Positions 4,086-62,913 of a DNA stretch of 64,000 nt are shown piece after piece. Positions within the stretch are counted from its first letter, which is position 1. Every line of letters starts with the position of its first letter. The notes under the pieces are model-generated. The model made no database searches. It was given only the letters and a program-made list of their open reading frames with translations, and was not told the origin of the DNA. Both the position numbers and the translations under genes were made by a program. The DNA comes from Candidatus Omnitrophota bacterium (lineage in GTDB: Bacteria > Omnitrophota > Gorgyraeia > Pluralincolimonadales > Pluralincolimonadaceae): positions 78,558-142,557 of the forward strand of contig PLNR01000006.1 of NCBI GenBank assembly GCA_003141835.1, in the 5' to 3' direction.

Positions 4086-4442
4086 CTACTTATGCGCGTT
4101 CGTCCCGGCCTGATAACCGGCTTGATAACCGGACTCATAACCCTTGGTGTAGCCTCTCTCGAACCCGCCCGAATCCGCTGCCGGAGCCGGAGCTACCTGC
4201 TGAGGAGCCGGTTTTTCATCCGGCATAAGCGCATCGGCTATAACGCCCGCCGCTATCCCGGTACCCGCTCCTATGAGCGCGCCCTGACCGGCCTTGCCGC
4301 CTGAAGCGCCTGAAGCTACGGCACCCGTCGCTGCGCCGATCAAACCGGTCTTAATGAGACTGCTGGCGCCGTCAGCAAATACCGGAGCTGAGACAGATAA
4401 CATAAGGGCAATTACCACTACAAATATTACCGCTATACGCAT
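4086..4442 (-). CDS. Small secreted/membrane Gly-rich protein (glycine-zipper type)
   Basis: 118 aa. Signal peptide MRIAVIFVVVIALMLSVSAPVFA, then GxxxG-rich LIGAATGAVASGASGGKAGQGALIGAGTGIAAGVIA and a Gly/Tyr-rich tail. A strong Shine-Dalgarno AAGGAGGGG precedes the ATG. Confidence 0.55.
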   Translation of the reverse strand: MRIAVIFVVVIALMLSVSAPVFADGASSLIKTGLIGAATGAVASGASGGKAGQGALIGAGTGIAAGVIADALMPDEKPAPQQVAPAPAADSGGFERGYTKGYESGYQAGYQAGTNAHK

Positions 4443-4498: not shown

Positions 4499-5128
4499 TT
4501 ACCTTACCTTCTCGGCGAGGGCCCTGTAGTTCTCCTTCGGATCGCCTTTCCCGAATATCCCGCTCCCGACGCAAGCGAGGTCGACGCCCGCCTCCTTTAT
4601 CATCAGGATATTTTCCGTTTTCAAGCCGCCGTCCATCGCGATTATAGGCCTGCCGCTGCGCCCTTTTAACGCGCGCGCCTTATCGCATACCTCCGGGATG
4701 AACTTGCTGCCGTAAAAACCCGGGTTCACGGAAAGGAAAAGCAAGACATCAATATCCTTGAAATATCCCTCGACTTTCGACACGGGTGTCTCCGGGTTTA
4801 TCGCGATGCCCGCTTCCATGCCGAGCGCGCGGATCTTCGGGATGAGCCCGGCCGGGTCCTCTTTGGATTCATAGTGGAAGATGATCCTTCCCGCGCCGGC
4901 CCTTTTGAAGGGTTCGAGGTATTTGCCCGGCTCCTCGACCATGAGGTGTATCTCAAGTTTCAGCCCCGTCTTGACCTTCGCCAGGTCCCCGGCAGATATG
5001 CTCTTCGACGGGACGAATTTCCCGTCCATTATGTCTACTTGGACCAGGTCGCAGAAACCTCCGGATTGGGCGATCATCCTTTCCAATTCGCCGGGTTTGT
5101 CGGTCAGCAATGCCGGTACTATCCTCAT
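4499..5128 (-). CDS. rpe: Ribulose-phosphate 3-epimerase
   Basis: 209 aa. Motifs LVQVDIMDGKFVP and LLFLSVNPGFYGSKF are diagnostic of RPE. Confidence 0.9.
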   Translation of the reverse strand: MRIVPALLTDKPGELERMIAQSGGFCDLVQVDIMDGKFVPSKSISAGDLAKVKTGLKLEIHLMVEEPGKYLEPFKRAGAGRIIFHYESKEDPAGLIPKIRALGMEAGIAINPETPVSKVEGYFKDIDVLLFLSVNPGFYGSKFIPEVCDKARALKGRSGRPIIAMDGGLKTENILMIKEAGVDLACVGSGIFGKGDPKENYRALAEKVR

Positions 5129-9212: not shown

Positions 9213-9929
9213 TCAGCGTATCTTCAGGGATTCGGCTTTCTTTATATCTTCCGGAAAATCTACCTCGGTCCACTTCAACCCGGTTATCTCCTCGATCCCG
9301 GCCGGGACGTGCCTGATAAAATTATCGAGCGCTTCTTCGTAATCGGCCCCCCGGTCCAGGGCAATAGTCTCTTCGACGGCTTTAAGGAATTCCCTCCTGT
9401 GAGCGGCCGATGTCTTGAAAAAACCGACACCCTCGCCCACCTCATCGTGTTTGCGCGTTATCCGCCGCGCTATCTGGGTAACCCTCCAGCCGAGGACCGC
9501 GACCTTCATCTCCTCCCCGCTCTCGCTGAAATGCCTGTCTATAAGAAAACAATTTTCATTTTTGGAGCCGATAAGCCTTCCGATCAGGCGCGATTCAAAA
9601 ACGACGTCGGCGTCCATCAACAAAAGGTCATCCGCTGTTGAAAACTCCCTCCGCGCGACCCACAGGGAGACGATACTGCCGAGTTTATATTCCCTGTTTT
9701 CGATATATCTTATCTTCGCGCCGTTATGCTCTTCTCCGACCGCCTCCGCAATCATCTCCTTAAGATAGCCGGTGACCAAGCATATATCCCTGACGCCGGC
9801 GGCCGCGAGGGAATCGAGCATGCGTTCCAGGATGGTCCTTCCACCGATACGGATAAGGGATTTCGGGGTCTTGTCAATAATGGGTTTTAGGCGGTTGCCG
9901 ATCCCGGCCGCAAGTATTATCGCTTTCAC
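9213..9929 (-). CDS. Nucleotidyltransferase (LicC/phosphocholine- or aminoethylphosphonate-cytidylyltransferase-like)
   Basis: 238 aa. N-terminal MKAIILAAGIGNRLKP...PKSLIRIGG is the sugar/phospho-alcohol nucleotidyltransferase fold signature. Confidence 0.75.
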   Translation of the reverse strand: MKAIILAAGIGNRLKPIIDKTPKSLIRIGGRTILERMLDSLAAAGVRDICLVTGYLKEMIAEAVGEEHNGAKIRYIENREYKLGSIVSLWVARREFSTADDLLLMDADVVFESRLIGRLIGSKNENCFLIDRHFSESGEEMKVAVLGWRVTQIARRITRKHDEVGEGVGFFKTSAAHRREFLKAVEETIALDRGADYEEALDNFIRHVPAGIEEITGLKWTEVDFPEDIKKAESLKIR

Positions 9930-11041
9930 CCCGCCGCCCTCTTTCCTTTATGCGGGCCAGGTTTCCTTAGCACGGACTTTAACGACGCCAAAAACCTGCG
10001 CGCATCACCGGCGGTTATCTGCCCCATATTCGCTATCCTGAAAATGACCTTCTTGAGTTTTGACTGGCCCGCGTAGATGATAAAACCTTCCGCTTTCAGC
10101 GCATCATGCAACCTGGTGTAAGTCATCCCTTTAGGGAGGCGCAGCGCGGTTATCGTATTCGAAAGGTATTTTGGCGCGATGAGGTATTCAAAACCGGCGG
10201 CCTCGAAACCTTTCCTTAGAAAGACCGCCAGGTTTTTATAACGTTTAACGCGGTTATTCACCCCTTCTTTCAAAAGCTCGTCGAGCGCGACATCCAGGGC
10301 GTAAAACGCCTGGACCGCCGGCGTAAAGAGCGGCTCGCCTTTCTTCTGCCCCTCGAGATTCGAGGGGATATCGAAATACAACGAACGCGGGGCGATCTTT
10401 TTCAGCCCTGGCAGGGCGGTCTTTTTTACCAGCACAAACGATATCCCGGGGATGCCCTCTATGCACTTGTTGGCGGTCCCGACGCAAAGCCCGACGCCCG
10501 CCTTACCGGGATCCAGTTCTTCGCCGCCCAACGCGCTTATGGAATCCAGGAGATAGAGTTTTTTGTATTTCCTGCACAGCTTGCCTATGCCGTATACGGG
10601 GTTCAAGATCCCGGTCGACGTCTCGTGATGCACCATCGCTATAACGGAGATATCTTTATTTTTCCTTATCTTTTCTTCAGCGGCATCTATATCCGGCGTC
10701 TTTTTCACGTCGGAGGCAAGGTTTATAAGGCCTATGCCGTGCCTTCTCGCTATCTCGGCTATCCTTCCGGCGTAAATACCGTTATTAACCACCAACATCT
10801 TTTTGCCCCGCGGGACAGACGAGACGACCGCGGCCTCCAATGCCGCCGTACCTGAACCGGTAAAGAATACAGCCTCGTAAGCTCCGGCTATGCCGAACGC
10901 CCGGAGCAGTTTTTTCGCGCAGCCTGTCATGAGCCTGCCGAACTCCGGTTCCCGGTGGCACATATCCGGCGCGAGAAGCGACCTCCTCACCTTTTCCTTG
11001 ATATTCACCGGCCCGGGATTCAACAGTACGTATCTTTTCAT
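9926..11041 (-). CDS. Class V aminotransferase, 2-aminoethylphosphonate:pyruvate (PhnW)/serine-pyruvate type
   Basis: 371 aa. N-terminus YVLLNPGPVNI...HREPEF matches the LLTPGPxx...HRxxxF pattern of the PhnW/AGXT family. The PLP Lys region is TANKCIEGIPG. Confidence 0.7.
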   Translation of the reverse strand: MKRYVLLNPGPVNIKEKVRRSLLAPDMCHREPEFGRLMTGCAKKLLRAFGIAGAYEAVFFTGSGTAALEAAVVSSVPRGKKMLVVNNGIYAGRIAEIARRHGIGLINLASDVKKTPDIDAAEEKIRKNKDISVIAMVHHETSTGILNPVYGIGKLCRKYKKLYLLDSISALGGEELDPGKAGVGLCVGTANKCIEGIPGISFVLVKKTALPGLKKIAPRSLYFDIPSNLEGQKKGEPLFTPAVQAFYALDVALDELLKEGVNNRVKRYKNLAVFLRKGFEAAGFEYLIAPKYLSNTITALRLPKGMTYTRLHDALKAEGFIIYAGQSKLKKVIFRIANMGQITAGDARRFLASLKSVLRKPGPHKGKRAAG

Positions 11042-11589
11042 GCGTTTTTGAACCTTTTCGCTATCTCAGGAGGGGCGATGCCGACCCTCGGCACTTTTTC
11101 CGAAGGATCGCGCCCCACTTTTACCAGGATAAAACTCGGCCCCTCTTTTTTCAGGCAATCCTTGAATGCTTCGGCAAAATCCTGCCCGAGGTCTTTCTTT
11201 ATGACGTTTTTTATCCCGCATCCTTCGGCTGCCCGCGCCAGGTCCACCCGGGGGGAGATGGTCGGCTGGCCGCCCGTCGAATCATAGCATTCGTTATCGA
11301 GCACTACGTGGATATAGTTTTTTGGTGAGATATTCGATATCATCGAAAGCACGCCGAAGTTCATGAGCAGGTTACCGTCCCCGTCCAGGACGACGACCTT
11401 CTTTCCCGGCCGGGCCATCGCGAACCCCAGGCCGATCGATGACGCCTGGCCCATAGATCCGAGCATATAGAAATTCCGCGGCCGGTCTTTCGCGTTGAAG
11501 GCATCGCGGGAGATGAACCCGTTGGCGCAGACGACATATTCGTCGCCTATAAGGGAGATTATCTTCGTTATCGCCTCGCGCATGATCAT
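11038..11589 (-). CDS. Phosphonopyruvate/sulfopyruvate decarboxylase beta subunit (ComE-like, TPP-binding C-terminal domain)
   Basis: The TPP motif GDGNLLMNFGVLSMISN...N is present. The track start at 11619 (MHLHQ...) is an N-terminal extension that overlaps the alpha gene. The ATG at 11589 (MIMREAIT) forms an ATGA overlap with the alpha stop. Confidence 0.75.
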   Translation of the reverse strand: MIMREAITKIISLIGDEYVVCANGFISRDAFNAKDRPRNFYMLGSMGQASSIGLGFAMARPGKKVVVLDGDGNLLMNFGVLSMISNISPKNYIHVVLDNECYDSTGGQPTISPRVDLARAAEGCGIKNVIKKDLGQDFAEAFKDCLKKEGPSFILVKVGRDPSEKVPRVGIAPPEIAKRFKNA

Positions 11590-12059
11590 TCCAGCGTGTC
11601 CTCTTTGATGAAGATGCAATATGGCTTGCCTTTCGCGATCTCTTTATCGGCCTCGGCCAGGGCCGCGGCGAGATCCTCCCTGCCGCATACGCTGTTGCGG
11701 ATACCGAATGTCTCCATAAGCTCGACGCAATGCCTGCCCATGATTATGTGCTCCGGGGCGTCCTTCCCGCCGTATCCGCGGAAACTGACAAGCATAAGGA
11801 CCGGGATGTCATAGATCATGTTGAGGCTGGTGAGGACATTCAGTGAATAGCCCAGGCCGGAATTCTGCATCAGGACGCAGGGCTTTCTTCCGCCGAGATA
11901 CGCGCCGGCCGCCATGCCCAGCGCAGTGTCCTCCCTGACCGCCGGGATATATTCCCCGGCGAGGGCGGTTATTATGCCTCCCAGGAGGGAACAGGGCACA
12001 CCGGTAAAAAAATCGAACCCCAGGCCTTTAAGTCTCGTCTTTAGCGTTGTCGCATCCAT
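11586..12059 (-). CDS. Phosphonopyruvate/sulfopyruvate decarboxylase alpha subunit (ComD-like, TPP pyrimidine-binding domain)
   Basis: 157 aa. FFTGVPCSLLGGI...ALGMAAGAYLGGRKPCVLMQNSGLG is the N-terminal domain of the Ppd/ComD family. Confidence 0.75.
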   Translation of the reverse strand: MDATTLKTRLKGLGFDFFTGVPCSLLGGIITALAGEYIPAVREDTALGMAAGAYLGGRKPCVLMQNSGLGYSLNVLTSLNMIYDIPVLMLVSFRGYGGKDAPEHIIMGRHCVELMETFGIRNSVCGREDLAAALAEADKEIAKGKPYCIFIKEDTLE

Positions 12060-12070
12060 ACCGCTTCCTA

Positions 12071-12931
12071 TCAGACCGCCCTGGCGAACTTCCTGTATAT
12101 TATATTGGATATCTCGTCTTCGAGGTCATGCAGGAATTTCAGTTCGGCGTCGGCCCTCTGGTATTCGTTCACATCCATATACCTGAGAAAATCCCTCAGG
12201 CCCATGTCAACGATCTCGTAGGGGATAGCCGGCTGGCCCATCTCGCCCAGCCTTATTATTATTGCCTTCATGAGAGCCTCCGGCTTCAGCTCGACGTCCC
12301 AGACCTTGCTCTTTGCCACTTCTTTACGGAACGGGATTATATTCTCCGGCTTATAGAAATCCCCCCTGAACTTCATGTAATCTATTTTCGACCAAAAATC
12401 CCACTGGGCCGAACAGAGCGAACAATTGGGGAGGAATATCTGGACGGGGTTGTTATAGGTATCGAAATAGGTGTGCGAGAGCAGGCTCACCGCGGCCGAG
12501 AGCTTGTCCGTGGATATCTTGGTCACTCTCCCGTCGCCGACCACATCCCTGGCGTCGTCGAGCAGCTTAAGGAATCCGGGCGCCTCTTCGCTTATGCGCG
12601 TGAAAGCGTATATCTTCTTTTCGAGCTTCTGCCTTTTTGCGGCGTCGGCCGGCGGCGTGCCGTCAAATTCTTTCCGCAGCTGCGCCGCCTTCCCGTCCAC
12701 GAACCTGCCCAGGGCCGCAAAATCTTTCTTCTCCGCCTCCGGCCTCGCGAAAAGCTCGAGCGTGACGTCGAGGAAATCAGGCTGGTTCTCGAGTATATGG
12801 GCGTAGACCCTGTGGAAATGCGCGGGTTTCTGGTCGATAACGGGTATCACGGAATATATCGCGGCGCCAAGGTCAAGCTTACTGGAATCCAAAAGCCTCG
12901 CCGCCAAAACCATATGAGTCCCCCAGTCCAT
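12071..12931 (-). CDS. Hypothetical protein, possible Zn-dependent phospholipase C / S1-P1 nuclease-fold protein
   Basis: 286 aa with no signal peptide. N-terminus MDWGTHMVLAARLL resembles the W-x-x-H zinc-ligand start of the Zn-PLC/P1 family. Several conserved His/Asp follow (AHFHRVYAH, SHTYFD). A strong AAGGAG Shine-Dalgarno lies 5 nt upstream. Confidence 0.4.
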   Translation of the reverse strand: MDWGTHMVLAARLLDSSKLDLGAAIYSVIPVIDQKPAHFHRVYAHILENQPDFLDVTLELFARPEAEKKDFAALGRFVDGKAAQLRKEFDGTPPADAAKRQKLEKKIYAFTRISEEAPGFLKLLDDARDVVGDGRVTKISTDKLSAAVSLLSHTYFDTYNNPVQIFLPNCSLCSAQWDFWSKIDYMKFRGDFYKPENIIPFRKEVAKSKVWDVELKPEALMKAIIIRLGEMGQPAIPYEIVDMGLRDFLRYMDVNEYQRADAELKFLHDLEDEISNIIYRKFARAV

Positions 12932-12944
12932 GTTTCTCCTTTAT

Positions 12945-13016
12945 GGGGACGTCCCATTGGGGGACGCTCCATTTATCTATTTTCATCTAATGGGGTGTCC
13001 CCCAATGGGACGTCCC
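12945..13016 (-). repeat. Inverted-repeat element, copy 1 (two 26-nt arms made of GGGGACGTCCC-like palindromic units around a 21-nt A/T-rich core)
   Basis: Arm A (12945-12970) is ggggacgtcccattgggggacgctcc. Arm B (12992-13017) is ggggtgtcccccaatgggacgtcccc, the near-exact reverse complement of arm A. The element fills the gap between the hpnH stop (13017) and the Shine-Dalgarno/ATG of the 12071..12931 gene. Confidence 0.8.
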
Positions 13017-14015
13017 CTAGGTGAACTGCCAGCCGATCAAAGTCATTATATCCCTGAATGATTTCCCTTCGAGCACGCTGGCCGGCTCGAAGCCGCAATG
13101 GACCGCGCATTCCGCGCAGCGCGGGTTCTTGCTTTTGGGCCCGTACTTCTTCCATTCGGTCTTTTCGATAAGTTCCTTGTAAGTGGCGAAATGCTTGTCC
13201 GCAAGCTGGTAACAGGGCGAACGCCATCCTATGGGGTTGCGCGTCGGCGTCGACCAGGGCGCGCAATCCAGGTCGCGCTTGCCCTGCACAAATTCAAAAT
13301 ATAGCGGCGAGCCGAGAAAATTGTATTTTTTGAACTCCGGCTCAAGTTTCCGGAAGAAATCCGCGAGTTCTTTCTTGCGGAAGAAGAACTCCTCGCCTAC
13401 CTGCGGGTACCCGTAGGCCGGCGATATCAGGAAACCGTCCACCCCGGCGCCCTGGAGGGTCTTGAACAATTGCTTAAGCTCGTTTATATCCGTCTGCCTG
13501 TAGATGGTCGTATTGGTGCAGACGAAGAAACCCTTCTTCTTCGCCGCCTTTATCGCCTCGATCACCCTGGCGTATGTCCCCTTAAGCCCGGTTATCGCGT
13601 CATGCGTCTTCTCCAGCCCGTCGATATGGAAATTTACCATGAGGTTTCCGCTCGGCTTCAGCTTGTCGATCTTGTCCTTGAAAAGCAGGCCGTTGGTGCA
13701 GAGGTATATATATTTTCCCTTCCTGGCGAGTTTCTCTATCAGCTCGGAGATATACGGGTAGACGAGCGGCTCTCCGCCGCAGATCGACACTATCGGCGCC
13801 CCGCACTCATCCGCCGCCTTGAGGCATTCGGCGACGGTCATCATCTTGTGCAGGTCGCGCTTATATTCCCTTATGCGCCCGCAGCCTTCGCACGATAAGT
13901 TGCACATTAACGACGGCTCCAGCATCAAGACAAGCGAGAACCGTTTATTGTTCCTGAGCTTGTTCGCGATTATGTGTTTCGTCATTCTGGCCGTTAAGCC
14001 GGGCTTGAACCTCAT
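13017..14015 (-). CDS. hpnH: Radical SAM adenosyl-hopene transferase HpnH
   Basis: 332 aa. Radical-SAM Cys triad CNLSCEGCGR, plus C-terminal cysteines (CAPW...CYQ...CAECAVHCG) typical of HpnH. Lies immediately downstream of shc. Confidence 0.85.
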   Translation of the reverse strand: MRFKPGLTARMTKHIIANKLRNNKRFSLVLMLEPSLMCNLSCEGCGRIREYKRDLHKMMTVAECLKAADECGAPIVSICGGEPLVYPYISELIEKLARKGKYIYLCTNGLLFKDKIDKLKPSGNLMVNFHIDGLEKTHDAITGLKGTYARVIEAIKAAKKKGFFVCTNTTIYRQTDINELKQLFKTLQGAGVDGFLISPAYGYPQVGEEFFFRKKELADFFRKLEPEFKKYNFLGSPLYFEFVQGKRDLDCAPWSTPTRNPIGWRSPCYQLADKHFATYKELIEKTEWKKYGPKSKNPRCAECAVHCGFEPASVLEGKSFRDIMTLIGWQFT

Positions 14016-14018
14016 TTT

Positions 14019-15920
14019 TCAGACCTTTGTCTTTCCGCGGTTGGCCGCATATTCCGAGAGGGCAATAAGAGGAAAATAAACGGAATAAAGTTCGTAACGC
14101 AGGTAGCATACCCTCGGAAAACCCGTCCCGGTAAAACTATCCTCTTTCCAGTTGCCGTTCGCCTCCTGGCTCCCTATGAGATAATCTATTCCGCGCGCGG
14201 CTGCGCCGCTCTCGTGGTCGCCTGCGGCGAAGAGTATGAAAAGCGCCCAGGCCGTCTGCGAAGCGGTCGATGGGCCTTTGCCTTTCTTGAACGGGTCCTC
14301 GTAAGTCGCCGCCGATTCCCCCCACCCCCCATCGTCATTCTGGACGCCGTATATCCATTTCGCCGCGGCTTCGAGCTCGCCCTTCGACGATCCCCCGGAC
14401 GAGAAAGAAAGGCCGCGCGCGGCAAGGAACGTGCCGTATATATAATTCACTCCCCACCTGCCGTACCACGTGCCGTCGGCTATCCTGTCTTTTTTCAAAA
14501 ATCTTATCGCGTCCTTTAGCGGGGATTTTTTAGCGTCGAAGCCGAGCCGGCCCAAAAGCTCGCACGTCCTTCCGGTTACATCCGCGCACGTTGGGTCGAG
14601 CATCGCATTATGGTCCGAAAAAGGCACCTTGTTCAGGAAACGCTTGTTGTTATCCCTGTCGTAAGAGCTGAACCCGCCGTCGCTGGACTGCATCTTCAGC
14701 ATCCAGTCAAGGCCGCGGTCGAATCCGGCTTTCTTCTGCGGCTCTTCCGTCCCCATATCTATCTGCGTCAACCCGAGCAATACCTGCGCGGTATCGTCTA
14801 TATCCGGGTAAAATTCGTTCCTGAACTGGAAATACCATCCTCCGGGCGAAGCGTCCCCGGCCTTTACCTTCCAATCGCCGGTCTCGTTCACCTGCTTCGA
14901 GAGGAGCCAGCGCCCGGCCTTCCTCATCGCATCGTGGCCCTTCGGGAAACCCGATATCCCGAGGGCGTATGCGCAGAGCGCCGTATCCCAGACCGGCGAT
15001 ACGCAGGGCTGCATCTCCGCCTCATTGCCGTTATCTATAGTTAATTTCAGAACTTCTTCGAGATTCGATTTCAAGAGCGGATGGTCGTTCTTATAGCCCA
15101 GGCAGCTCAATGCCATTACGGAATTTATCATTGCCGGATAGATGGCGCACAAGCCGTCGCTCTTGTCGAACCTTTTTATCATCCATTGCCCGGCTTTCTT
15201 CACTGCCGCGCCCTTAAAGAACGCTAATCTCAATTTATATAAGGTCTTTATCGTGCCATCCAGGAAGAGGAAAAGGTTCTTCCAACTTACCACCCGCATG
15301 TCCCATCGTATGCCGCAATCTTTCGTCCTGTGTCCGGCCGTGTAAAGCTCATCGACGCTGAAATTTTTCGCGAGGGGCCGCACCGGCCTGGAAGCCCAGA
15401 TCACCGAAAGCGGCACGACGATCGTCCTCGTCCAGGCGCTGAAATCGTAAATATTCACCGGGGACCACTCCGGGAGCAGGATAAGCTCCGGCGGTATAGC
15501 CGGCGCTGCGTCCCAGTTCCCGAGGCCGAACATGGCCAGGTAGAACCTGTTATAGCTGTTGGACTTTTCGATTCCGCCGAGGCTTAATATTATCCGGCGG
15601 TCCCGCGCCATCAGCTGGTTCCCTTCTTCGAAGCCTTTAAGCTTCAGCGCCATATAGTTCTTTATGGTGGCGTTGAGTTCCGGCGGGCCGCCCGGATAGA
15701 CCGGCCATCCCCCGTCCTCAAGGCGCCCGGCCAAAATAAAATTCACAAGTTTACCTTCCAGCTCCTCGTCCCTTATGCCAAGGAACCGCAGAAGGAAGAT
15801 AGTATCCGCCTCCAGGCCCAGGTCCATATGGAAATTCGAATGGAAATGGCCGTCGGCATCCTGTTTGCCCAGGATATACTCCTGGGCGCTGTTTATCGCG
15901 TTCGAGAGTCTCTCGTTCAT
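14019..15920 (-). CDS. shc: Squalene-hopene cyclase
   Basis: 633 aa. Catalytic DIDDTA motif (DxDDTA) and multiple QW repeats (GGWxxxxxG...). The C-terminal GGWGE segment is present. Confidence 0.93.
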   Translation of the reverse strand: MNERLSNAINSAQEYILGKQDADGHFHSNFHMDLGLEADTIFLLRFLGIRDEELEGKLVNFILAGRLEDGGWPVYPGGPPELNATIKNYMALKLKGFEEGNQLMARDRRIILSLGGIEKSNSYNRFYLAMFGLGNWDAAPAIPPELILLPEWSPVNIYDFSAWTRTIVVPLSVIWASRPVRPLAKNFSVDELYTAGHRTKDCGIRWDMRVVSWKNLFLFLDGTIKTLYKLRLAFFKGAAVKKAGQWMIKRFDKSDGLCAIYPAMINSVMALSCLGYKNDHPLLKSNLEEVLKLTIDNGNEAEMQPCVSPVWDTALCAYALGISGFPKGHDAMRKAGRWLLSKQVNETGDWKVKAGDASPGGWYFQFRNEFYPDIDDTAQVLLGLTQIDMGTEEPQKKAGFDRGLDWMLKMQSSDGGFSSYDRDNNKRFLNKVPFSDHNAMLDPTCADVTGRTCELLGRLGFDAKKSPLKDAIRFLKKDRIADGTWYGRWGVNYIYGTFLAARGLSFSSGGSSKGELEAAAKWIYGVQNDDGGWGESAATYEDPFKKGKGPSTASQTAWALFILFAAGDHESGAAARGIDYLIGSQEANGNWKEDSFTGTGFPRVCYLRYELYSVYFPLIALSEYAANRGKTKV

Positions 15921-20109: not shown

Positions 20110-22869
20110 TCACTTTTTGGCCTTCTTCTCTTTCGCCACTATCTCCATGAAGATCGCCACGATCTTCGGGTCGAAATGCGTCCCTGATTCTTCTCTTATT
20201 ATCTTCAGGGCCTCCCTCTTCGGGTAGGCCTTCCGGTACGGCCTGTTGGAAACGAGGGCCTGGTATACGTCTACGACCGCGATTATCCTGGCGCCGATCG
20301 GTATCTCATCGCCCTTCAATTTGGAGCCGTACCCGTATCCGTCGTATCTCTCGTGGTGGTGCAGGATGATCGGGACGACATCCTTAAGGAAATGCACGGG
20401 CCTGATTATGTCCGCGCCGATCTGCGGGTGCTTCTTTATTACCTCGAACTCCTTCTTGGTGAGCTTGCCGCGCTTGAGGAGTATCTTCTCGCCGATGCCG
20501 AGCTTGCCTATGTCGTGGAGCATGGCGCCGTGCTTGAGGTCGTCGAGCTCCTGGTCCGTAAGATTCATTTTCTTGCCCACCTCGGTCGATAATTTCACCA
20601 TCTCTTCCGAGTGCTCCTCGGTATACGCGTTCTTGGCACCTACCGTGTGCGCCAGGGCATAGACCGCCTCTATCGTATTCTGTTTGTTGCGCCTGAGGAG
20701 TTCCAGGAATTTATTCGTGATACTGCTCAGACGTTTCTGCGAATCGGCATCTACGGGCGGCGCCGAGGCCTTCTTCTTGCGCAGCTGGCTGGAGACGCTT
20801 ATCGTGTCACCGCCTTGTTCTTTCGCGAGGCGCACGCACTTATCCGCGCTCGTAAGCAGCTGGTCTACGGTGGCGACGCCATCCGCAGGATATGAGCAGA
20901 TGCCGATGCTTATCCTGAGTTTCACTTTATTCGCCCCGAACCTGTGTTTCTTTATTATCCTTTGTATCCTGTCGGCAAAGGCCAGGGCGCCATTCTCTTC
21001 CGTATCCGGCAGGATGATGGCGAAACCCTCGCCTTCGAACCTCGTTACGACGTCTATGCCGCGTGAAGCGTGCTGCAGGACTATGGCGAACTCCTGCAGG
21101 ACCGTATCGCCGTACTCGTGCCCGTAGGTGTCGTTCACGGATTTGAAATAATCTATGTCCACCATGAGTATCGAAAGCGGCGTCGCCCTGCGTTTCGCCA
21201 GCTCGAATTCGGAATGTATCCTCCTCTGGAGGTAGCGGTAATTATAGAGCTGGGTGTGCGGGTCTATCAGGGCCAGGGCTTCGGCTTCCTTCTTTTCGCG
21301 TTCGATCCGCTTGAGCTCCGATATGTCCCTGAATATTCCCTGCGCCACTTTCTTGCCGCCAAGCTCGAAGACAGAGGCGCTTATATAGACAGGTATCCTT
21401 TCACCCTTTGAATTGAATATCTCCGCTTCAAGAGAGGGATTATGAGAGCCTTTAGATTCCTCCGCTGCCTTGACGATATCGCGGAATTTCTCCTGATAGC
21501 TCTCGGCTTCTTCCGGAGGATGGAGCCTGACCTGGTTAATCCCGATAAGCTCTTTCCTGGGCCTGCCAATAAGCTCTTCCACCTGTTTATTGACATCCAA
21601 TATTTCGCCTGTCCGCGTATCCATTATGACTATCGCGTCGTTTGCTGACTCGAAGATACTTTTGAATTTATCTTCGGATTCCTTGAGCTGGAACTCAAGT
21701 TTTCTCCTGACCGTTATGTCGCGCGCGATGCCTGTCGTCCCGATCACTTCGCCTTTTTCGTTGAAGATAGGGGTCTTGATCGTCTCGATCCATGTCACTA
21801 TTCCTTCCTTGTCGTGCATGGGCTCTTCTATGACTTTTCTCCTCCCGGTCCGCATGACCTCGGCATCATCAGCCCTGTAGCTCTGCGCGAGGTTCTTGGG
21901 CCAACAATCAAAATCCGTCTTTCCGACAATGTCTTTGGCCGCCATGCCGCAGGCTTTCGCGAATGATTCGTTTGCCGCGATAAACCTGCTTTCTTTATCT
22001 TTTAGCCATGCCATATCGGGTATATTGTCAAGTATAGCTTCCTGCTGCCTCTCGGCCTCTTTAAGTGTTTCTTCTGTCCGTTTCCGCTTTGTGATATCGA
22101 ACATGACACCCTGGAGGAAGAGCGGTTTCCCTGATTCGTCTTTTACTACTGACGCCTCATCGGTGATCCATATAACACGGCCGTCCTTCCTCATCATCCT
22201 GTAATCCACCCGGAAAGATGACATTGCCTTATGGCATTTCTCCAGCTCGGATAGTACCCTGTCCCGGTCTTCCGGATACAGCTGTTTCAGCCATACCTCC
22301 GCGCTCGACTTATAGTACTCTTCCGGGGTGAACCCCAGCAGGTCCTTGATCTGGGGGCTGATGAAAAGCGTCCTGCTGTCCTTGCCCAGTTCCGCGATGT
22401 AAGTGACCGCCGGAAGTTTTTCGACAAGTGAACGGTATTTTTTTTCCGTCTTCTCCCTCTCTTCGTCTAAATATTTACGCTCGGTCACATCTTCTACGAC
22501 TTCGATCGCGGCGATCACGTTGCCGTTCTTGTCTTTGACCGGAGAGGAGACTACGCGGAAATTGATTATTTTATCGAATCGGGGGGTCTCGGTGACCGCC
22601 TCGTGGACTTTTCCGTCTTTCAGGGTTTTGGCGGTCGGACAATATGTACATTTCTCGTTGCGCGGCGGATTATTGAAACAGGAATAACAGATAGGCTTTT
22701 TGTTTACGTCCACTTCGGGAAACCACTTCTTCATGACTTTGTTTAAAGCGAGGATCTCCATCTCCGGGCTTATTACGGAGACGCCCATGCCGAAGTCGTC
22801 GAATAACGCGAAAGCGGCTTTATTCTCTTTGACCCAGTTATCGTTCTTTACGAAGAGGTTTACGAACAT
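20110..22869 (-). CDS. Multidomain c-di-GMP signalling protein: several PAS/PAC domains, degenerate GGDEF, HD-GYP
   Basis: 919 aa. The GGDEF region has RFEGEGF in place of RYGGEEF, with the upstream RGID I-site retained. The HD-GYP domain (LHDIGK...HHHERYDGYGYG) has GYG in place of GYP. The first PAS-like domain contains CYSC...CTYC. Confidence 0.8.
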   Translation of the reverse strand: MFVNLFVKNDNWVKENKAAFALFDDFGMGVSVISPEMEILALNKVMKKWFPEVDVNKKPICYSCFNNPPRNEKCTYCPTAKTLKDGKVHEAVTETPRFDKIINFRVVSSPVKDKNGNVIAAIEVVEDVTERKYLDEEREKTEKKYRSLVEKLPAVTYIAELGKDSRTLFISPQIKDLLGFTPEEYYKSSAEVWLKQLYPEDRDRVLSELEKCHKAMSSFRVDYRMMRKDGRVIWITDEASVVKDESGKPLFLQGVMFDITKRKRTEETLKEAERQQEAILDNIPDMAWLKDKESRFIAANESFAKACGMAAKDIVGKTDFDCWPKNLAQSYRADDAEVMRTGRRKVIEEPMHDKEGIVTWIETIKTPIFNEKGEVIGTTGIARDITVRRKLEFQLKESEDKFKSIFESANDAIVIMDTRTGEILDVNKQVEELIGRPRKELIGINQVRLHPPEEAESYQEKFRDIVKAAEESKGSHNPSLEAEIFNSKGERIPVYISASVFELGGKKVAQGIFRDISELKRIEREKKEAEALALIDPHTQLYNYRYLQRRIHSEFELAKRRATPLSILMVDIDYFKSVNDTYGHEYGDTVLQEFAIVLQHASRGIDVVTRFEGEGFAIILPDTEENGALAFADRIQRIIKKHRFGANKVKLRISIGICSYPADGVATVDQLLTSADKCVRLAKEQGGDTISVSSQLRKKKASAPPVDADSQKRLSSITNKFLELLRRNKQNTIEAVYALAHTVGAKNAYTEEHSEEMVKLSTEVGKKMNLTDQELDDLKHGAMLHDIGKLGIGEKILLKRGKLTKKEFEVIKKHPQIGADIIRPVHFLKDVVPIILHHHERYDGYGYGSKLKGDEIPIGARIIAVVDVYQALVSNRPYRKAYPKREALKIIREESGTHFDPKIVAIFMEIVAKEKKAKK

Positions 22870-22895: not shown

Positions 22896-23684
22896 TTACT
22901 TGCCCTTGAGGCTGGTTAACATCTGCTTCGCTTTATCGAAAGAAATATTGTCATGGACGATGGCCCGGATGGTCTTTATCATAGCCACCGGATCCCTGGA
23001 CTGCCATATATTGCGGCCCATATCCACGCCGCATGCGCCGCGCCTTATCGCCTCATACGCTATCTCGAGCGCGTCCGTTTCGGTCTTTAACTTCGGGCCG
23101 CCTGCGATGACTAGCGGGACAGGGCAGCTCTTTACCACTTTCTCGAAATCTTCGCAGTAATATGTCTTTACGAAGCTTGCGCCTAATTCGGCGGCTATCC
23201 TGCAGGAGAGCGAAAGGTAACGGGCGTCCCTCTTCTCGAGTTCTTTCCCGACCGCGGTCACGGCAAGCACCGGGACGCCGTATTCCATACCCTCGTCTAC
23301 AAGCCTTGAAAAACTCACGATTGTCTGGTGCTCATGTTTCGAGCCGATATATATCGAGAAAGCCACGGCTGAGACGTTGAGGCGCACCGCGTCCTTCATC
23401 GAAACCGTGATCTCCTCGTTCGAAAGGTCTTCGCCTATTATGGTGTTCCCGCCTGAGGCCCTGAGGACTATCGGTATATCGTTGCCTGCGTCAATACAAT
23501 TCCGCAGTACTCCCCGCGTGGGCATAAGGGCATCAGTATAAGGAAGCAGGGGTTTAACGGTCTTGGAAGGATCTTCTAATCTTTGGACGGGTCCGAGGAA
23601 ATACCCGTGGTCTATTGCGAGCATGACTGTGCGGCCGTCCGGTTTTATTATCCGGCTTAAACGGTTCTTGAGTCCCCAATCCAT
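22896..23684 (-). CDS. Class I (DhnA/archaeal-type) fructose-bisphosphate aldolase / ADH-synthase family protein
   Basis: Translated from the ATG at 23684 (MDWGLKNRLSRII...), the protein has the conserved AIDHG and Schiff-base Lys region (VKTYY) and the 262-aa size of this family. A Shine-Dalgarno AAGGAG sits 7 nt upstream. The track start at 23783 would translate through the inverted-repeat element and is rejected. Confidence 0.75.
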   Translation of the reverse strand: MDWGLKNRLSRIIKPDGRTVMLAIDHGYFLGPVQRLEDPSKTVKPLLPYTDALMPTRGVLRNCIDAGNDIPIVLRASGGNTIIGEDLSNEEITVSMKDAVRLNVSAVAFSIYIGSKHEHQTIVSFSRLVDEGMEYGVPVLAVTAVGKELEKRDARYLSLSCRIAAELGASFVKTYYCEDFEKVVKSCPVPLVIAGGPKLKTETDALEIAYEAIRRGACGVDMGRNIWQSRDPVAMIKTIRAIVHDNISFDKAKQMLTSLKGK

Positions 23685-23703
23685 GTTGTAGCTCCTTTTT
23701 AGC

Positions 23704-23781
23704 GGGGACGTTCCAAAAAGGGTACACTCCACTTTCTTATTTATCATCTGAAAGTGGGGTGTCCCTTTTTGGGACGTCCCC
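23704..23781 (-). repeat. Inverted-repeat element, copy 2 (homologous to 12945..13016)
   Basis: Arm A (23704-23730) is ggggacgttccaaaaagggtacactcc. Arm B (23756-23781) is ggggtgtccctttttgggacgtcccc, the reverse complement of arm A with 3 mismatches. The A/T-rich core resembles that of copy 1 (agatgaWaaaUa). The element sits between a sigma70-like promoter and the aldolase Shine-Dalgarno. Confidence 0.8.
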
Positions 23782-23784
23782 ATA

Positions 23785-23812
23785 ATTATACCCTATTTGC
23801 CTTATTTTTCAA
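23785..23812 (-). promoter_or_regulatory. Sigma70-type promoter (TTGAAA-16-TATAAT) firing into IR element copy 2 and the aldolase gene
   Basis: Minus strand: -35 TTGAAA (plus 23807-23812), 16-nt spacer, -10 TATAAT (plus 23785-23790). The predicted TSS falls in the first Gs of the IR arm. Confidence 0.55.
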
Positions 23813-30613: not shown

Positions 30614-31867
30614 ATGCTAACTTTATTCAATAGCATGGACATAAATACAACCCGTACTATTAACGAGCTAGTCTCCGCTATTGCTTATGTCCTTGATGTG
30701 ATGAGTGAAGGCACAAACCTCTACCACTCTTGGCGCGTAAGCATATTCGCTTCCCAATTCGCGAAAACGCTCATCCCCGACGAAAGAAAAACGATATTCT
30801 ACGCCTCGCTCCTGCATGATATCGGTTATCTCGCGCTTCCCGAACATATAACGCATTACCTTTCATCGCAGGAAGACCCTTCGAAGGACCCGGTGATCCT
30901 TTCCCATCCTATCATCGGCGCGGAACTGACCAGCCAGATACCGAACCTCTCGACGATAGCGAAGCTTATCCTGAACCACCACGAATGGTACAACGGCAGG
31001 GGTTATCCGCTCGGCAAGCAGCGCAACGAGATCCCGCTGGGCGCGCAGATAATATTGCTCGCCGACCAGATGGACATGCTCATGAGGAGCAAATCGATAA
31101 CCGGCATAAAGGCGATCGAGAAAGAAATATCCTTATGGTCAAATGAGCGCGTCTCGGCCGAGCTCCTTGAAACGGCAATGAGGGTCCTCACGGATGAGGG
31201 ACTGGTCGAAGAAGTATCGGATAAAGAGAAAATACCGGCGGTATTCAACAGGGTAAGGGCTGAGACCGGGCCGGTGGACATTCCCGGGAGCGTCGACGCG
31301 GTAGGCATCGCCTGCGAGGTATTTTCGCAGCTGATAGACACTAAACATCCCTCGATGATCGGGCATTCCAAGAGGGTCTCGGTCTATTCGATACTCATCT
31401 CGCTGGCAATGAACCTCTCCCACGACGATATAACCAAAACGAAATGGGCGGCCCTGCTCCACGACGTAGGTAAGCTCGGCATCGCCAAGGGCCTCATCAG
31501 CAAACCCGGAAAACTTACCCCGCAGGAATTTGACGCGATGAAGATACATGCCGTATTTACGCGCGAACTGCTCGAGACGATAGTGGATTTTAAAGAGATA
31601 GCCTTGATAGCGAGCTCCGATCACGAGCGTTTTGATGGGAAGGGTTATCCGATGGGCATCAAGGGCAACCAGATACCTTTAGGAACAAGGATAATCTCAG
31701 TCGCCGACGCCTTCGACGCGATGACATCTACAAGGACCTACCGCAGGGCGATGTCCAAGGAAGCGGCCTGCGACGAGATCGAAAGATGCGCCGGGACCCA
31801 GTTCGACCCGGCCGTGGTCAAGGAAGCTATTCCGGTCCTGCGCAATCTCTCTGTTTCCCTCCTCTAA
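30614..31867 (+). CDS. Tandem HD-GYP domain phosphodiesterase-family protein
   Basis: 417 aa with two complete HD-GYP modules: (LLHDIGY...HHEWYNGRGYPLG) and (LLHDVGKLG...DHERFDGKGYPMG). The only clear plus-strand gene. The true start may be the second ATG (30635, MDINTT...). Confidence 0.82.
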   Translation: MLTLFNSMDINTTRTINELVSAIAYVLDVMSEGTNLYHSWRVSIFASQFAKTLIPDERKTIFYASLLHDIGYLALPEHITHYLSSQEDPSKDPVILSHPIIGAELTSQIPNLSTIAKLILNHHEWYNGRGYPLGKQRNEIPLGAQIILLADQMDMLMRSKSITGIKAIEKEISLWSNERVSAELLETAMRVLTDEGLVEEVSDKEKIPAVFNRVRAETGPVDIPGSVDAVGIACEVFSQLIDTKHPSMIGHSKRVSVYSILISLAMNLSHDDITKTKWAALLHDVGKLGIAKGLISKPGKLTPQEFDAMKIHAVFTRELLETIVDFKEIALIASSDHERFDGKGYPMGIKGNQIPLGTRIISVADAFDAMTSTRTYRRAMSKEAACDEIERCAGTQFDPAVVKEAIPVLRNLSVSLL

Positions 31868-61307: not shown

Positions 61308-62171
61308 TTAAAATCCGTGTAATGCGACCGTAACGTCCCTTTTCCCTTTCACCCCTTCCAGGATCACATGCAGGAGTATCGAATCCTCGTTCCTGGATAT
61401 CCCAAGCGTCCCTTTCGTGAAGTCATAATTCCCGAAGCTATCCTCGATAAGCGAAAGCGGCTGTTTCGTGTTATCCGCGAGCCTTTTGAGGATCTCCTTG
61501 TCGGTGATGACCAGCGAGCCTCCCGGAGACACAGTCGAAAAATCCCCTTTTATATCGGTGATCTTCGCTTGCTCGCCGCGGAGCATGATCGCGCCGCCCA
61601 TAATGCCTTTCATCTCCACGCGGCCTTCGGCATTCAACCCTTTCGGCAGCAAGGCAAGATCGATCCCTCCGGCTTCAATATTCGCGTCGTAGACTATCGT
61701 CTTGCCTATTGTCATATTGCCGCTCGCGTCGGCGTTAAGCTTCCAGTCGGCCGTATTCAGGACCACTGTCATGCCCGTCATGACGAGCGACCTGACCGCA
61801 AAAGCCTTCCCGGGTTTGAGGGCCGGATATTCGATAATGTCGCGTAATTTTTTTCCGGGAGAGTTAAATTCCAAAGAGCCGCCCTTGACGGTTATCTCGG
61901 GTATTATCCTCGTAAACAGCGAAAGCGGCGAAAATCTTATCTCTACCTGCTTGATACGGTAGCGCAGGGTATCGCCTTTCTTTATGTCGATCCCGGTGAT
62001 CGCGACCGTATTCGCGTTCCTGAGTCCTGCGTTCCCGATCGAAACATCATAGCCGGGAAACGCGCTTTTTATCTGCCCGACGGCGATATTGACTAACAGG
62101 GGCCTGCCGATCAACCACAGGGCCGGCAAGATCGCCAGGATAACCGCTAAGATAACTAATTTCCGTCTCAA
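61308..62171 (-). CDS. Membrane-anchored protein, paralog A (YdbH/AsmA-like domain candidate)
   Basis: 287 aa with an N-terminal TM helix. Shares extended similarity with 62179..62913 (for example ITGIDIKKGDTLRYRIKQVEIRFSPLSLFTR versus ITGIKATRGADLSYRINGLEIKFSPLSLFTR). Confidence 0.5.
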   Translation of the reverse strand: MRRKLVILAVILAILPALWLIGRPLLVNIAVGQIKSAFPGYDVSIGNAGLRNANTVAITGIDIKKGDTLRYRIKQVEIRFSPLSLFTRIIPEITVKGGSLEFNSPGKKLRDIIEYPALKPGKAFAVRSLVMTGMTVVLNTADWKLNADASGNMTIGKTIVYDANIEAGGIDLALLPKGLNAEGRVEMKGIMGGAIMLRGEQAKITDIKGDFSTVSPGGSLVITDKEILKRLADNTKQPLSLIEDSFGNYDFTKGTLGISRNEDSILLHVILEGVKGKRDVTVALHGF

Positions 62172-62178
62172 TAGTTTT

Positions 62179-62913
62179 TCATAATCCGCGCAAAGGAAAA
62201 GTCAGGTCCTTCTTGCCCTTCACGCCTTTGAGTGTCATATGAAACACCAGAGATCCCGTCTTTCCCGATATCTGCAGGGTGCCTTCCGTGAAATCGAAAT
62301 CTTTCAGGTCTTCGATATCAGCCAGCGGTTGTTTCGCGTTATCCGCAAGCCTTTTAAGGAATGCCTCATCCTTAATGGCAATGTTCCAACTGCCCGGGGC
62401 GACGGAAAAATCGCCTTTTATCTCCGTCTCGCCTGACGGTGTCTTACGTATCTCTATATTCCCGCCGACTACAGTGTTAAGTTTCCAGTCGGCCGTTTCC
62501 AATATCGGGTTAAAATTCAATATCACAATGGATTTAGCCGTAAAACCTTTCCCCGGATTAAATACCGGGTACCCGATGACATCTTTGAGCTTTTTATCCA
62601 CGGAACTGACTTCCATAAGAGAATTTTTTATAATGATCTTCGGGACTTTCCTCGTAAATAGCGAGAGCGGCGAAAATTTTATCTCTAACCCGTTTATCCT
62701 GTAAGAAAGGTCCGCGCCCCGCGTAGCCTTTATTCCGGTTATCGCGATCATGTCGGCATTCCTGATCTCGGCGGCGCCGATCGAAACATTATAGCCGGGG
62801 AACATCTCCTTGATCTCCTTTACCGCGATGCCGGTTATCAGGGACCTGCCGAATAATCCCACACCTAGCACGAGCGCCAGGATGACCGCGAAAATGACTA
62901 TTTCCCGTCTCAT
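62179..62913 (-). CDS. Membrane-anchored protein, paralog B (YdbH/AsmA-like domain candidate)
   Basis: 244 aa. Tandem duplicate of the preceding gene, lacking an internal segment of about 45 aa. Confidence 0.5.
   Translation of the reverse strand: MRREIVIFAVILALVLGVGLFGRSLITGIAVKEIKEMFPGYNVSIGAAEIRNADMIAITGIKATRGADLSYRINGLEIKFSPLSLFTRKVPKIIIKNSLMEVSSVDKKLKDVIGYPVFNPGKGFTAKSIVILNFNPILETADWKLNTVVGGNIEIRKTPSGETEIKGDFSVAPGSWNIAIKDEAFLKRLADNAKQPLADIEDLKDFDFTEGTLQISGKTGSLVFHMTLKGVKGKKDLTFPLRGL

Follow-up and report, generated by a model that had tools for sequence, protein, structure and literature searches.

REP-like hairpin doublets in a Candidatus Omnitrophota genome, one of them inserted in the 5' leader of an aldolase gene

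Results

Two copies of an inverted hairpin doublet

The 64,000-nucleotide (nt) stretch of DNA analyzed here, which we call the window, belongs to Candidatus Omnitrophota bacterium assembly GCA_003141835.1 (contig PLNR01000006.1, positions 78,558 to 142,557) and contains two copies of a short hairpin-forming element. Copy 2 (23704-23781, minus strand, 78 nt) lies in the 5' leader of an LsrF-type class I aldolase gene (22896-23684, minus strand; 262 amino acids [aa]; ATG at 23684), the product of which begins MDWG. Copy 1 (12945-13017, minus strand, 73 nt) is intercistronic, between hpnH and the gene for a conserved 286-aa protein that begins MDWGTH (12071-12931, minus strand). We are confident, though short of certain, that the element is a REPIN-like doublet, that is, two inverted 26-nt units resembling repetitive extragenic palindromic (REP) sequences, which enclose a short variable spacer and form a hairpin of ~75 nt. 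We identify it in this way because a palindromic unit, an inverted doublet hairpin, and units that flank a Y1/HUH transposase gene together make up the architecture of REP sequences, REP doublets (REPINs), and REP-associated tyrosine transposases (RAYTs).

The unit has the form GGGGACGTCCC-N5-GGGACACCCC (GGGG-AC-GTCCC-N5-GGGAC-A-CCCC) and is itself an imperfect stem-loop. Units of consensus sequence fold as 4+5-bp stem-loops of -7.4 to -8.3 kcal/mol (DNA parameters), with the variable N5 as the loop. On the minus strand, the sense strand of the aldolase gene, copy 2 reads GGGGACGTCCCAAAAAGGGACACCCC-ACTTTCAGATGATAAATAAGAAAGT-GGAGTGTACCCTTTTTGGAACGTCCCC, in which two inverted units of 26 and 27 nt surround a 25-nt spacer. 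The unit that supplies the 5' arm in the mRNA sense (23756-23781, minus strand) is of the consensus or C type, GGGGACGTCCC-AAAAA-GGGACACCCC, and gives a 4+5-bp stem with a 5-nt loop when folded alone (-7.9 kcal/mol, DNA parameters). Its partner (23704-23730, plus strand), GGGGACGTTCC-AAAAA-GGGTACACTCC, is of a variant or T type (GTTCC...CACTCC) with one extra T and does not fold alone. The spacer (23731-23755, minus strand), which forms the loop region of the hairpin, has AGATGA(A/T)AAATA in common with copy 1, whose units occupy 12992-13017 (minus strand) and 12945-12970 (plus strand).

A preliminary description of this DNA, made from the letters alone, had reported that the two copies have common arms and that each is followed by AAGGAG and by ATGGAYTGGGG, the start of an MDWG protein; this was confirmed. 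For the tip GGGGACGTCCC, with up to one mismatch allowed, 1.46 occurrences are expected in the window and 7 are present, all of them inside the two elements. A looser two-part search of the window recovered the four arms of copies 1 and 2 and nothing more. We considered a CRISPR (clustered regularly interspaced short palindromic repeat) array and rejected it, as the copies are single inverted pairs 10.7 kb apart and not regularly spaced direct repeats.

Position of the copies relative to genes and signals

Copy 2 is preceded by a sigma-70-like promoter site (23785-23812, minus strand; TTGAAA at 23812-23807, a 16-nt spacer, and TATAAT at 23790-23785), which matches at 11 of 12 positions and is the best-scoring site of the region. 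The trinucleotide TAT separates TATAAT from the element, the first G of which is only 4 nt past the -10 hexamer. The earlier placement of the transcription start at that first G is for this reason in need of revision: the promoter-like site stands, but a start 1 to 5 nt inside copy 2 (~23780-23776), and so probably inside the stem, is more likely. Of the two copies, this promoter link holds for copy 2 alone; copy 1 is intercistronic and begins on the hpnH stop codon, with the G of TAG (13017-13019, minus strand) as its first base. Copy 1 is followed by ATAAAGGAGAAAC and then the ATG at 12931, the element ending 13 nt ahead of this start codon, and the Shine-Dalgarno sequence AAGGAG of the 286-aa gene is located at 12936-12941 (minus strand).

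Between copy 2 and the aldolase ATG (23684) the sequence is GCTAAAAAGGAGCTACAAC, and the gene continues after the ATG with GATTGGGGA. The Shine-Dalgarno sequence AAGGAG (23692-23697, minus strand) is outside the element, 6 to 12 nt past the stem, and is mostly unpaired in the predicted fold. As RNA, copy 2 has a folding energy of -54.4 kcal/mol in the sense orientation and -62.3 kcal/mol in the antisense orientation (z-scores of -7.9 and -10.5, respectively), and none of 200 shuffled sequences folded equally well. Neither strand has a T run after the element, and a scan for intrinsic terminators gave no flag, which does not fit a hairpin of that type. The idea that the hairpin makes up the 5' part of the aldolase leader, with the Shine-Dalgarno sequence outside the stem, is supported in silico by the conservation of the promoter-like site in relatives, described below.

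Both copies are insertions that vary between close relatives

Close relatives were reached through homolog searches with the proteins. In three NCBI metagenome-assembled genomes (L159 to L161) that encode an aldolase 95% identical to that of the window, the element is absent from the orthologous site. TTGAAA and TATAAT are both unchanged in these genomes, the leader reading TATAAT...AAAAAGGAGTTACAACATGGATTGGGG, and they keep AAAAAGGAG-TTACAAC-ATGGATTGGGG as in the window, where AAAAAGGAG is the Shine-Dalgarno region. In place of copy 2 they have 14 nt (AATATACTGCCCAC).

Copy 1 is present at the same hpnH site, with one substitution, in a relative with 93% identity (L177). It is also present in a Logan contig from the identical strain (L001), which terminates exactly at the edge of the element; assemblies are known to end at repeats. 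In L002 to L006 (95% identity) and in L178 and L179 (86%), a 33-nt spacer without copy 1 is found, and the start ATGGACTGGGG is kept. Both window copies are insertions. Neither filled site shows a target-site duplication. The element does not include the promoter, the Shine-Dalgarno sequence, or the MDWG codons; element-free relatives have them too, so they are older than the insertion and are features of the host genes.

The supplied open reading frame (ORF) of the aldolase starts at 23783 and adds a 33-codon N-terminal extension (23685-23783). As suspected in the preliminary description, this extension is a spurious annotation, because it is encoded by the inserted element and because 101 of the 120 best aldolase homologs start with MDWG; the true ATG is that at 23684. 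In L159 to L161, from which the element is absent, gene callers add 12 codons upstream of MDWG (MKYTAHQKRSYN, 2501-2537), running over the Shine-Dalgarno sequence. The upstream extensions in the window and in these genomes both look like annotation artefacts.

The common MDWG start

The two gene starts could suggest a different reading. Had the element been a portable expression cassette, it would carry a structured leader, a Shine-Dalgarno sequence, and the first 3 or 4 codons (MDWG) and donate them to downstream genes, as had been proposed. AAGGAG and ATGGAYTGGGG follow both copies, the 11-mer occurs nowhere else in 64 kb (its two sites are at 23684 and 12931), and we estimate the a priori chance of MDWG in two unrelated proteins at ~1e-5. 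Element-free relatives, however, already have the Shine-Dalgarno sequence, the ATG, and MDWG at both loci (L159 to L161 at the aldolase; L002 to L006, L178, and L179 at the 286-aa gene).

Homologs of the two proteins lead in the same direction. The window aldolase scores 398.7 bits against NCBIfam PRK08227, in an alignment that begins at profile position 31, and its MDWG aligns with residues 34 to 37 (L-D-W-G) of Escherichia coli LsrF; DWG is thus present in that enzyme as well as in the MDWG homologs counted above. Neither Pfam nor NCBIfam gives a match for the 286-aa protein, and the MDWGTH N terminus is near universal among its homologs, down to ~50% identity and across phyla (by source names, Omnitrophota, Scalinduaceae, Brocadiales, Methylomirabilales, and Planctomycetota). 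Judging from this conservation in the homologs of both proteins, the MDWG N termini are old family traits.

We also assembled 23 unique doublets of the window subfamily, 59 to 99 nt long, from the window and from fetched loci; the 21 others all come from other genomes. None of these 21 precedes an MDWG gene. Nor does GGGGAC, which is present in both gene starts and could have pointed to a target preference, occur in the flanks of any of the 21. A Shine-Dalgarno sequence and ATG directly follow only two (L010 and L089). On these grounds we treat the shared MDWG of the two downstream genes as a coincidence, though an improbable one, and give the cassette a probability close to nil.

The units flank a Y1/HUH transposase gene

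Solo copies of the units flank, in inverted orientation, genes for a Y1/HUH transposase, probably of the RAYT or "TIRYT" type. In metagenomic locus L021, inverted solo units at 4256-4281 and 5056-5081 surround a 224-aa ORF that matches Pfam Y1_Tnp (E 1.3e-18) and scores 79.5 bits against the NCBIfam REP-associated tyrosine transposase model (NF047646; cutoff, 80). Its sole relative in the Protein Data Bank is E. coli TnpA-REP (4ER8; E 0.007), with the HUH motif aligned. The catalytic tyrosine of TnpA-REP, which we take to be Y115, aligns with the L021 ORF by our own reading of the alignment.

Among the 3,727 relatives that a homolog search from this ORF gave at E <= 1e-20, several have Omnitrophota or Omnitrophica in their source names. 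In the two closest homologs on long contigs (L174 and L176), the RAYT gene is flanked by inverted GGGGACGT(C/T)C(C/T)-N5-GGGACACC units, so that the same unit flanks a RAYT gene in three related metagenomic loci, all outside the source genome. RAYT genes labeled Omnitrophota or Omnitrophica at NCBI (L162, L166, and L170) have cognate variants of the unit on either side, GGGGACGTGTC-ACTTT-GGGACACTCC being one example. Wherever units enclose a gene, the gene encodes a Y1/HUH transposase (six of six loci). In L170 to L173, a PhdYeFM antitoxin/ParE-YoeB toxin pair is found directly downstream of the RAYT gene.

An ordinary miniature inverted-repeat transposable element (MITE), derived from a DDE-type insertion sequence and with the arms as terminal inverted repeats (TIRs) bound by a DDE transposase, would likewise have long TIRs, conserved GGGG tips, a short variable interior, and insertion polymorphism. 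Yet it would not lead us to expect that the six flanked genes all encode Y1/HUH transposases, that each arm is itself a stem-loop, that solo units are common, or that the filled sites lack target-site duplications. We regard an origin of this kind as very unlikely and prefer the REPIN-like doublet.

Dispersal of the unit family

Species-representative genomes were scanned for one arm with the exact 19-base pattern GGGGACGTCCC-N5-GGGAC-N-C-NCC. The scan found 32 loci, a mix of full doublets and solo arms with solo units common. They include loci in five Omnitrophota genomes, two of which have 3 or 4 loci each, and matches in genomes labeled Planctomycetia, Aminicenantaceae, and Eubacteriales; even by this exact pattern, single genomes have 2 to 4 loci. 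We attributed to chance eight matches in high-GC genomes (Actinomycetota, Longimicrobiales, and Solibacteraceae) that have no partner arm.

A tip-to-tip scan of metagenomes, with a loose pattern, gave at least 120 matches. Among the matches listed there are several subfamilies in which the GGGGACGTCCC tips are kept and the inner arms differ (e.g., ...ATTAGGTACCACCCTAT and ...ACACGTTCACCTGTTTT). We set aside CRISPR arrays, a 72-nt tandem repeat, and high-GC chance matches. The arrays (L087, 400-2059, and L123) are true CRISPR arrays of high-GC organisms with a 37-nt repeat, GTTTCAACCCACGGCCGGGGACGTCCCCGGCCGCTGC, that contains GGGGACGTCCCC, and they appear unrelated to the REP family. The tandem repeat array (L085, 420-1714; ~11 to 18 copies) also contains GGGGACGTCCCC.

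The arm pattern had no match in viral contigs, and nothing points to a phage origin. A literature search for GGGACGTCCC returned primers and unrelated sequences only, and one that combined Omnitrophota with RAYT returned, by title and abstract, only work on syntrophy in anaerobic digesters.

Doublets with the arms of the window copies were found in other samples (L106 and L089), with wholly different spacers and unrelated flanks. The doublets at L010 (3043-3117) and L089 (9-90) have a common left flank, AGAATGTA, and are followed by AAGGAG and a gene that starts MNVVI; their N5 loops differ (ATTTG and ATTGG), and their spacers are unrelated. This arrangement suggests the same insertion site in two genomes, with long persistence or turnover at one site. 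From the sequence, we read the site as an lptB-hpf junction, gene identities that are unconfirmed by search. At L033 (1944-2021), the arms of one doublet have different N5 loops (AAAAA and ATTTG), and both subtypes occur in the same genome (MHHC01), which suggests a recombinant between copies of two subtypes. This doublet adjoins a probable tRNA gene, recognized by inspection alone.

Two arm types and strand asymmetry

Most doublets pair unlike arms: 14 of the 23 consist of one consensus arm (GTCCC...CACCCC/T) and one variant arm (GTTCC...CACTCC/T), and none has two variant arms. Because one arm is of the consensus and the other of the variant type, every mismatched position of the stem is C-A on one strand and G-T (G-U in RNA) on the opposite one. 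For both copies in the window, it is the plus strand, antisense to the genes, that is fully paired. The transposase genes of L174 and L176 each have a GTTC-type unit (GTTCT and GTTCC, respectively) upstream on the coding strand.

GC skew on the plus strand is negative throughout the window, which would make the fully paired strand the template of the leading strand. We considered replication direction as the cause of the asymmetry and rejected it, as a leading-strand template clashes with the lagging-strand model for IS200/IS605 elements.

These data also bear on the proposal that the palindrome puts the aldolase gene and the operon downstream of hpnH under common control, either as an operator bound by a dimeric regulator or as a cis-regulatory RNA. 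The self-complementary tips (GGGGACGTCCCC) and the location of both copies shortly before start codons, oriented alike relative to the genes, are what such a shared site would look like. The element is not conserved, however, at the orthologous loci of close relatives, and elsewhere the same units are found after stop codons, beside the probable tRNA gene, and around transposase genes. The spacer is not conserved, and the window has no match in Rfam at gathering thresholds. In L033, a stretch free of stop codons ends 4 nt ahead of the doublet and appears to be on the fully paired strand, which in the window is antisense; gene context was called here by an automatic stop-free-frame heuristic that is rough and too noisy for orientation statistics, and we cite only clear cases. 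With transposase genes between the units and no MDWG gene after the other doublets, the proposal of a shared regulatory site is abandoned as highly improbable.

Neighboring genes and other repeats in the window

The hpnH gene (13017-14015; TIGR03470, 389 bits) forms a hopanoid pair on the minus strand with a squalene-hopene cyclase gene (14019-15920), assigned through the Pfam SQHop_cyclase domains of its L002 counterpart. After this pair, the region 9926-15920 (minus strand) continues with four codirectional genes, of which the first encodes the 286-aa MDWGTH protein. Downstream of it are a split thiamine pyrophosphate (TPP)-dependent decarboxylase (11586-12059 and 11038-11619) and a class V aminotransferase. 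Pfam identifies only TPP_enzyme_N and TPP_enzyme_C in the split decarboxylase, and its likeness to phosphonopyruvate or sulfopyruvate decarboxylases is our interpretation. In L001, the run goes on with a nucleotidyltransferase, a CDP-alcohol phosphatidyltransferase, and an LPG_synthase_TM protein. The downstream run looks like a cluster for phosphonates or polar-head-group lipids that is fused to the hopanoid genes.

Two other repeats were detected. Direct repeats of 61 to 181 nt, 742 nt apart and 71 to 78% identical (61699-62912), probably mark two tandem paralogous genes. A 94-nt inverted match (20433-20526 and 31451-31544; 71% complementarity), with one arm in the 3' part of a PAS-GGDEF-HD(GYP) gene (20110-22869), probably reflects a paralogous domain encoded on the opposite strand.

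Discussion

Comparison with known repeats

REPINs and RAYTs have been described in Pseudomonas fluorescens and E. coli (Bertels and Rainey 2011, PMC3116915; see also PMC5581495 and Messing et al. 2012, PMC3479197). The element resembles them in its short, imperfectly palindromic units, inverted around a short spacer to give a long hairpin, and in the occurrence of extragenic doublets together with solo units. As in those systems, a Y1/HUH transposase gene lies between inverted copies of the family's own units, close relatives may have or lack a given copy, and some insertions persist at orthologous sites. The hosts differ, being Candidatus Omnitrophota and other uncultivated lineages rather than Proteobacteria; the RAYT homologs are ~195 to 225 aa long and at or just under the NCBIfam RAYT cutoff; and in most doublets a consensus arm is joined to a C-to-T variant arm, giving a heterodimer.

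A second relative is the TIRtron or TIRYT group, for which Di Nocera et al. (2013, PMC3733652) describe RAYT-like genes with long TIRs that share GGGGWSAS, and moderately abundant repeats that are often dimers. By that account, a RAYT-like gene lies between inverted repeats of ~26 to 45 nt, as here; GGGGACAC, the inner half of every unit in our family, fits GGGGWSAS; and some TIRs are self-complementary, with dimers elsewhere in the genome. The TIRYTs of that account come from Acidobacteria, Stenotrophomonas, and other cultivated species, and the outer palindrome GGGGACGTCCCC appears to fall outside it. The same source describes CGTC-tagged REPs, in which CGTC is an unpaired terminal tag beside an 8- to 9-bp stem that starts with A-T pairs, with no transposase associated. 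Our units have CGTC in the tip and form head-to-head dimers, but here CGTC is inside the structure and a RAYT is associated, and we rejected membership in that class because the architecture differs.

Bacterial interspersed mosaic elements (BIMEs) of E. coli combine Y- and Z-type REPs in inverted pairs, are transcribed in operons, and affect mRNA stability and the translation of upstream genes. Our doublets are like BIMEs in having two distinguishable, inverted unit types and unlike them in unit sequence, which is unrelated.

Several observations weigh against a REPIN-like identity. The classical GTAG tag is absent from both ends of the unit, the tips of which are GGGGACGTCCC. Scores of the RAYT homologs on NF047646 range from 73.2 to 82.2 bits around the cutoff of 80, and only one of six passes (82.2). 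The 64-kb window contains no RAYT gene and two copies only. Neither empty site is a clean excision footprint, as ~14 to 18 nt of spacer are replaced.

A possible mechanism and its consequences for expression

By analogy with the family, we postulate that the doublet is nonautonomous and that a RAYT encoded elsewhere in the genome would spread it in trans, acting by cutting and joining single-stranded DNA at hairpins. Copy 2 would have landed between the -10 box and the aldolase Shine-Dalgarno sequence, replacing ~14 nt. Provided that the conserved promoter works, transcripts of the aldolase gene would begin with a stem-loop of ~30 bp and the Shine-Dalgarno sequence would stay free. The 5' stem-loop of ompA stabilizes its mRNA; REPs of E. 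coli shield upstream mRNA from 3' exonucleases, and a gene there is translated less when a REP lies within ~15 nt of its stop codon. A 5'-terminal hairpin might by comparison be expected to protect the aldolase transcript from 5'-end-dependent decay and not to block translation. Copy 1, if active at all, could act as an intercistronic hairpin that stabilizes the upstream message or impedes ribosomes terminating on hpnH.

A related idea, compatible with a REPIN-like doublet, is that the insertions have been exapted and are now kept for tuning expression, copy 2 as a 5' stabilizer of the aldolase mRNA and copy 1 as a processing, stability, or translation-coupling element after hpnH. The position of copy 2 spares both promoter and Shine-Dalgarno sequence, copy 1 persists at one site in two lineages that are 93% identical, and doublets precede MNVVI genes in both L010 and L089 after the same AGAATGTA left flank. 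The parallels with E. coli REPs and the ompA stem-loop lend it some plausibility. Close relatives nevertheless manage without the element, and in the sense mRNA the four stem mismatches are all C-A, whereas the antisense RNA has G-U in their place, so that the better-paired strand is not that of the mRNA. We think it rather unlikely that the hairpins are kept for this reason.

A broader proposal is possible, although we put it forward tentatively and would not call it probable. Hairpins tipped with GGGGACGTCCC may constitute a large undescribed REP/RAYT superfamily in Omnitrophota and other uncultivated phyla, whose subfamilies keep the tip and swap the inner arm. Its conserved heterodimer doublets, of a consensus arm and a GTTCC/CACTCC arm, would have G-T mismatches on one strand only, an asymmetry by which the transposase might tell left from right ends or recognize the active strand, and one copy would have been co-opted as the 5' stem-loop of the aldolase mRNA.

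Significance

For annotation, the element matters in that it causes the spurious extension of the aldolase and breaks assemblies, as in L001. Filled and empty aldolase leaders, which precede proteins 95% identical to each other, form a natural pair in which the effect of a ~30-bp hairpin at the 5' end could be studied. The element is neither a new regulatory principle nor a gene-start cassette. With its unusually clear two-arm asymmetry, the family is suited to asking which DNA strand the transposase works on. For REPIN research, a REPIN-like identity would extend RAYT-associated hairpin repeats to Candidatus Omnitrophota and neighboring uncultivated lineages.

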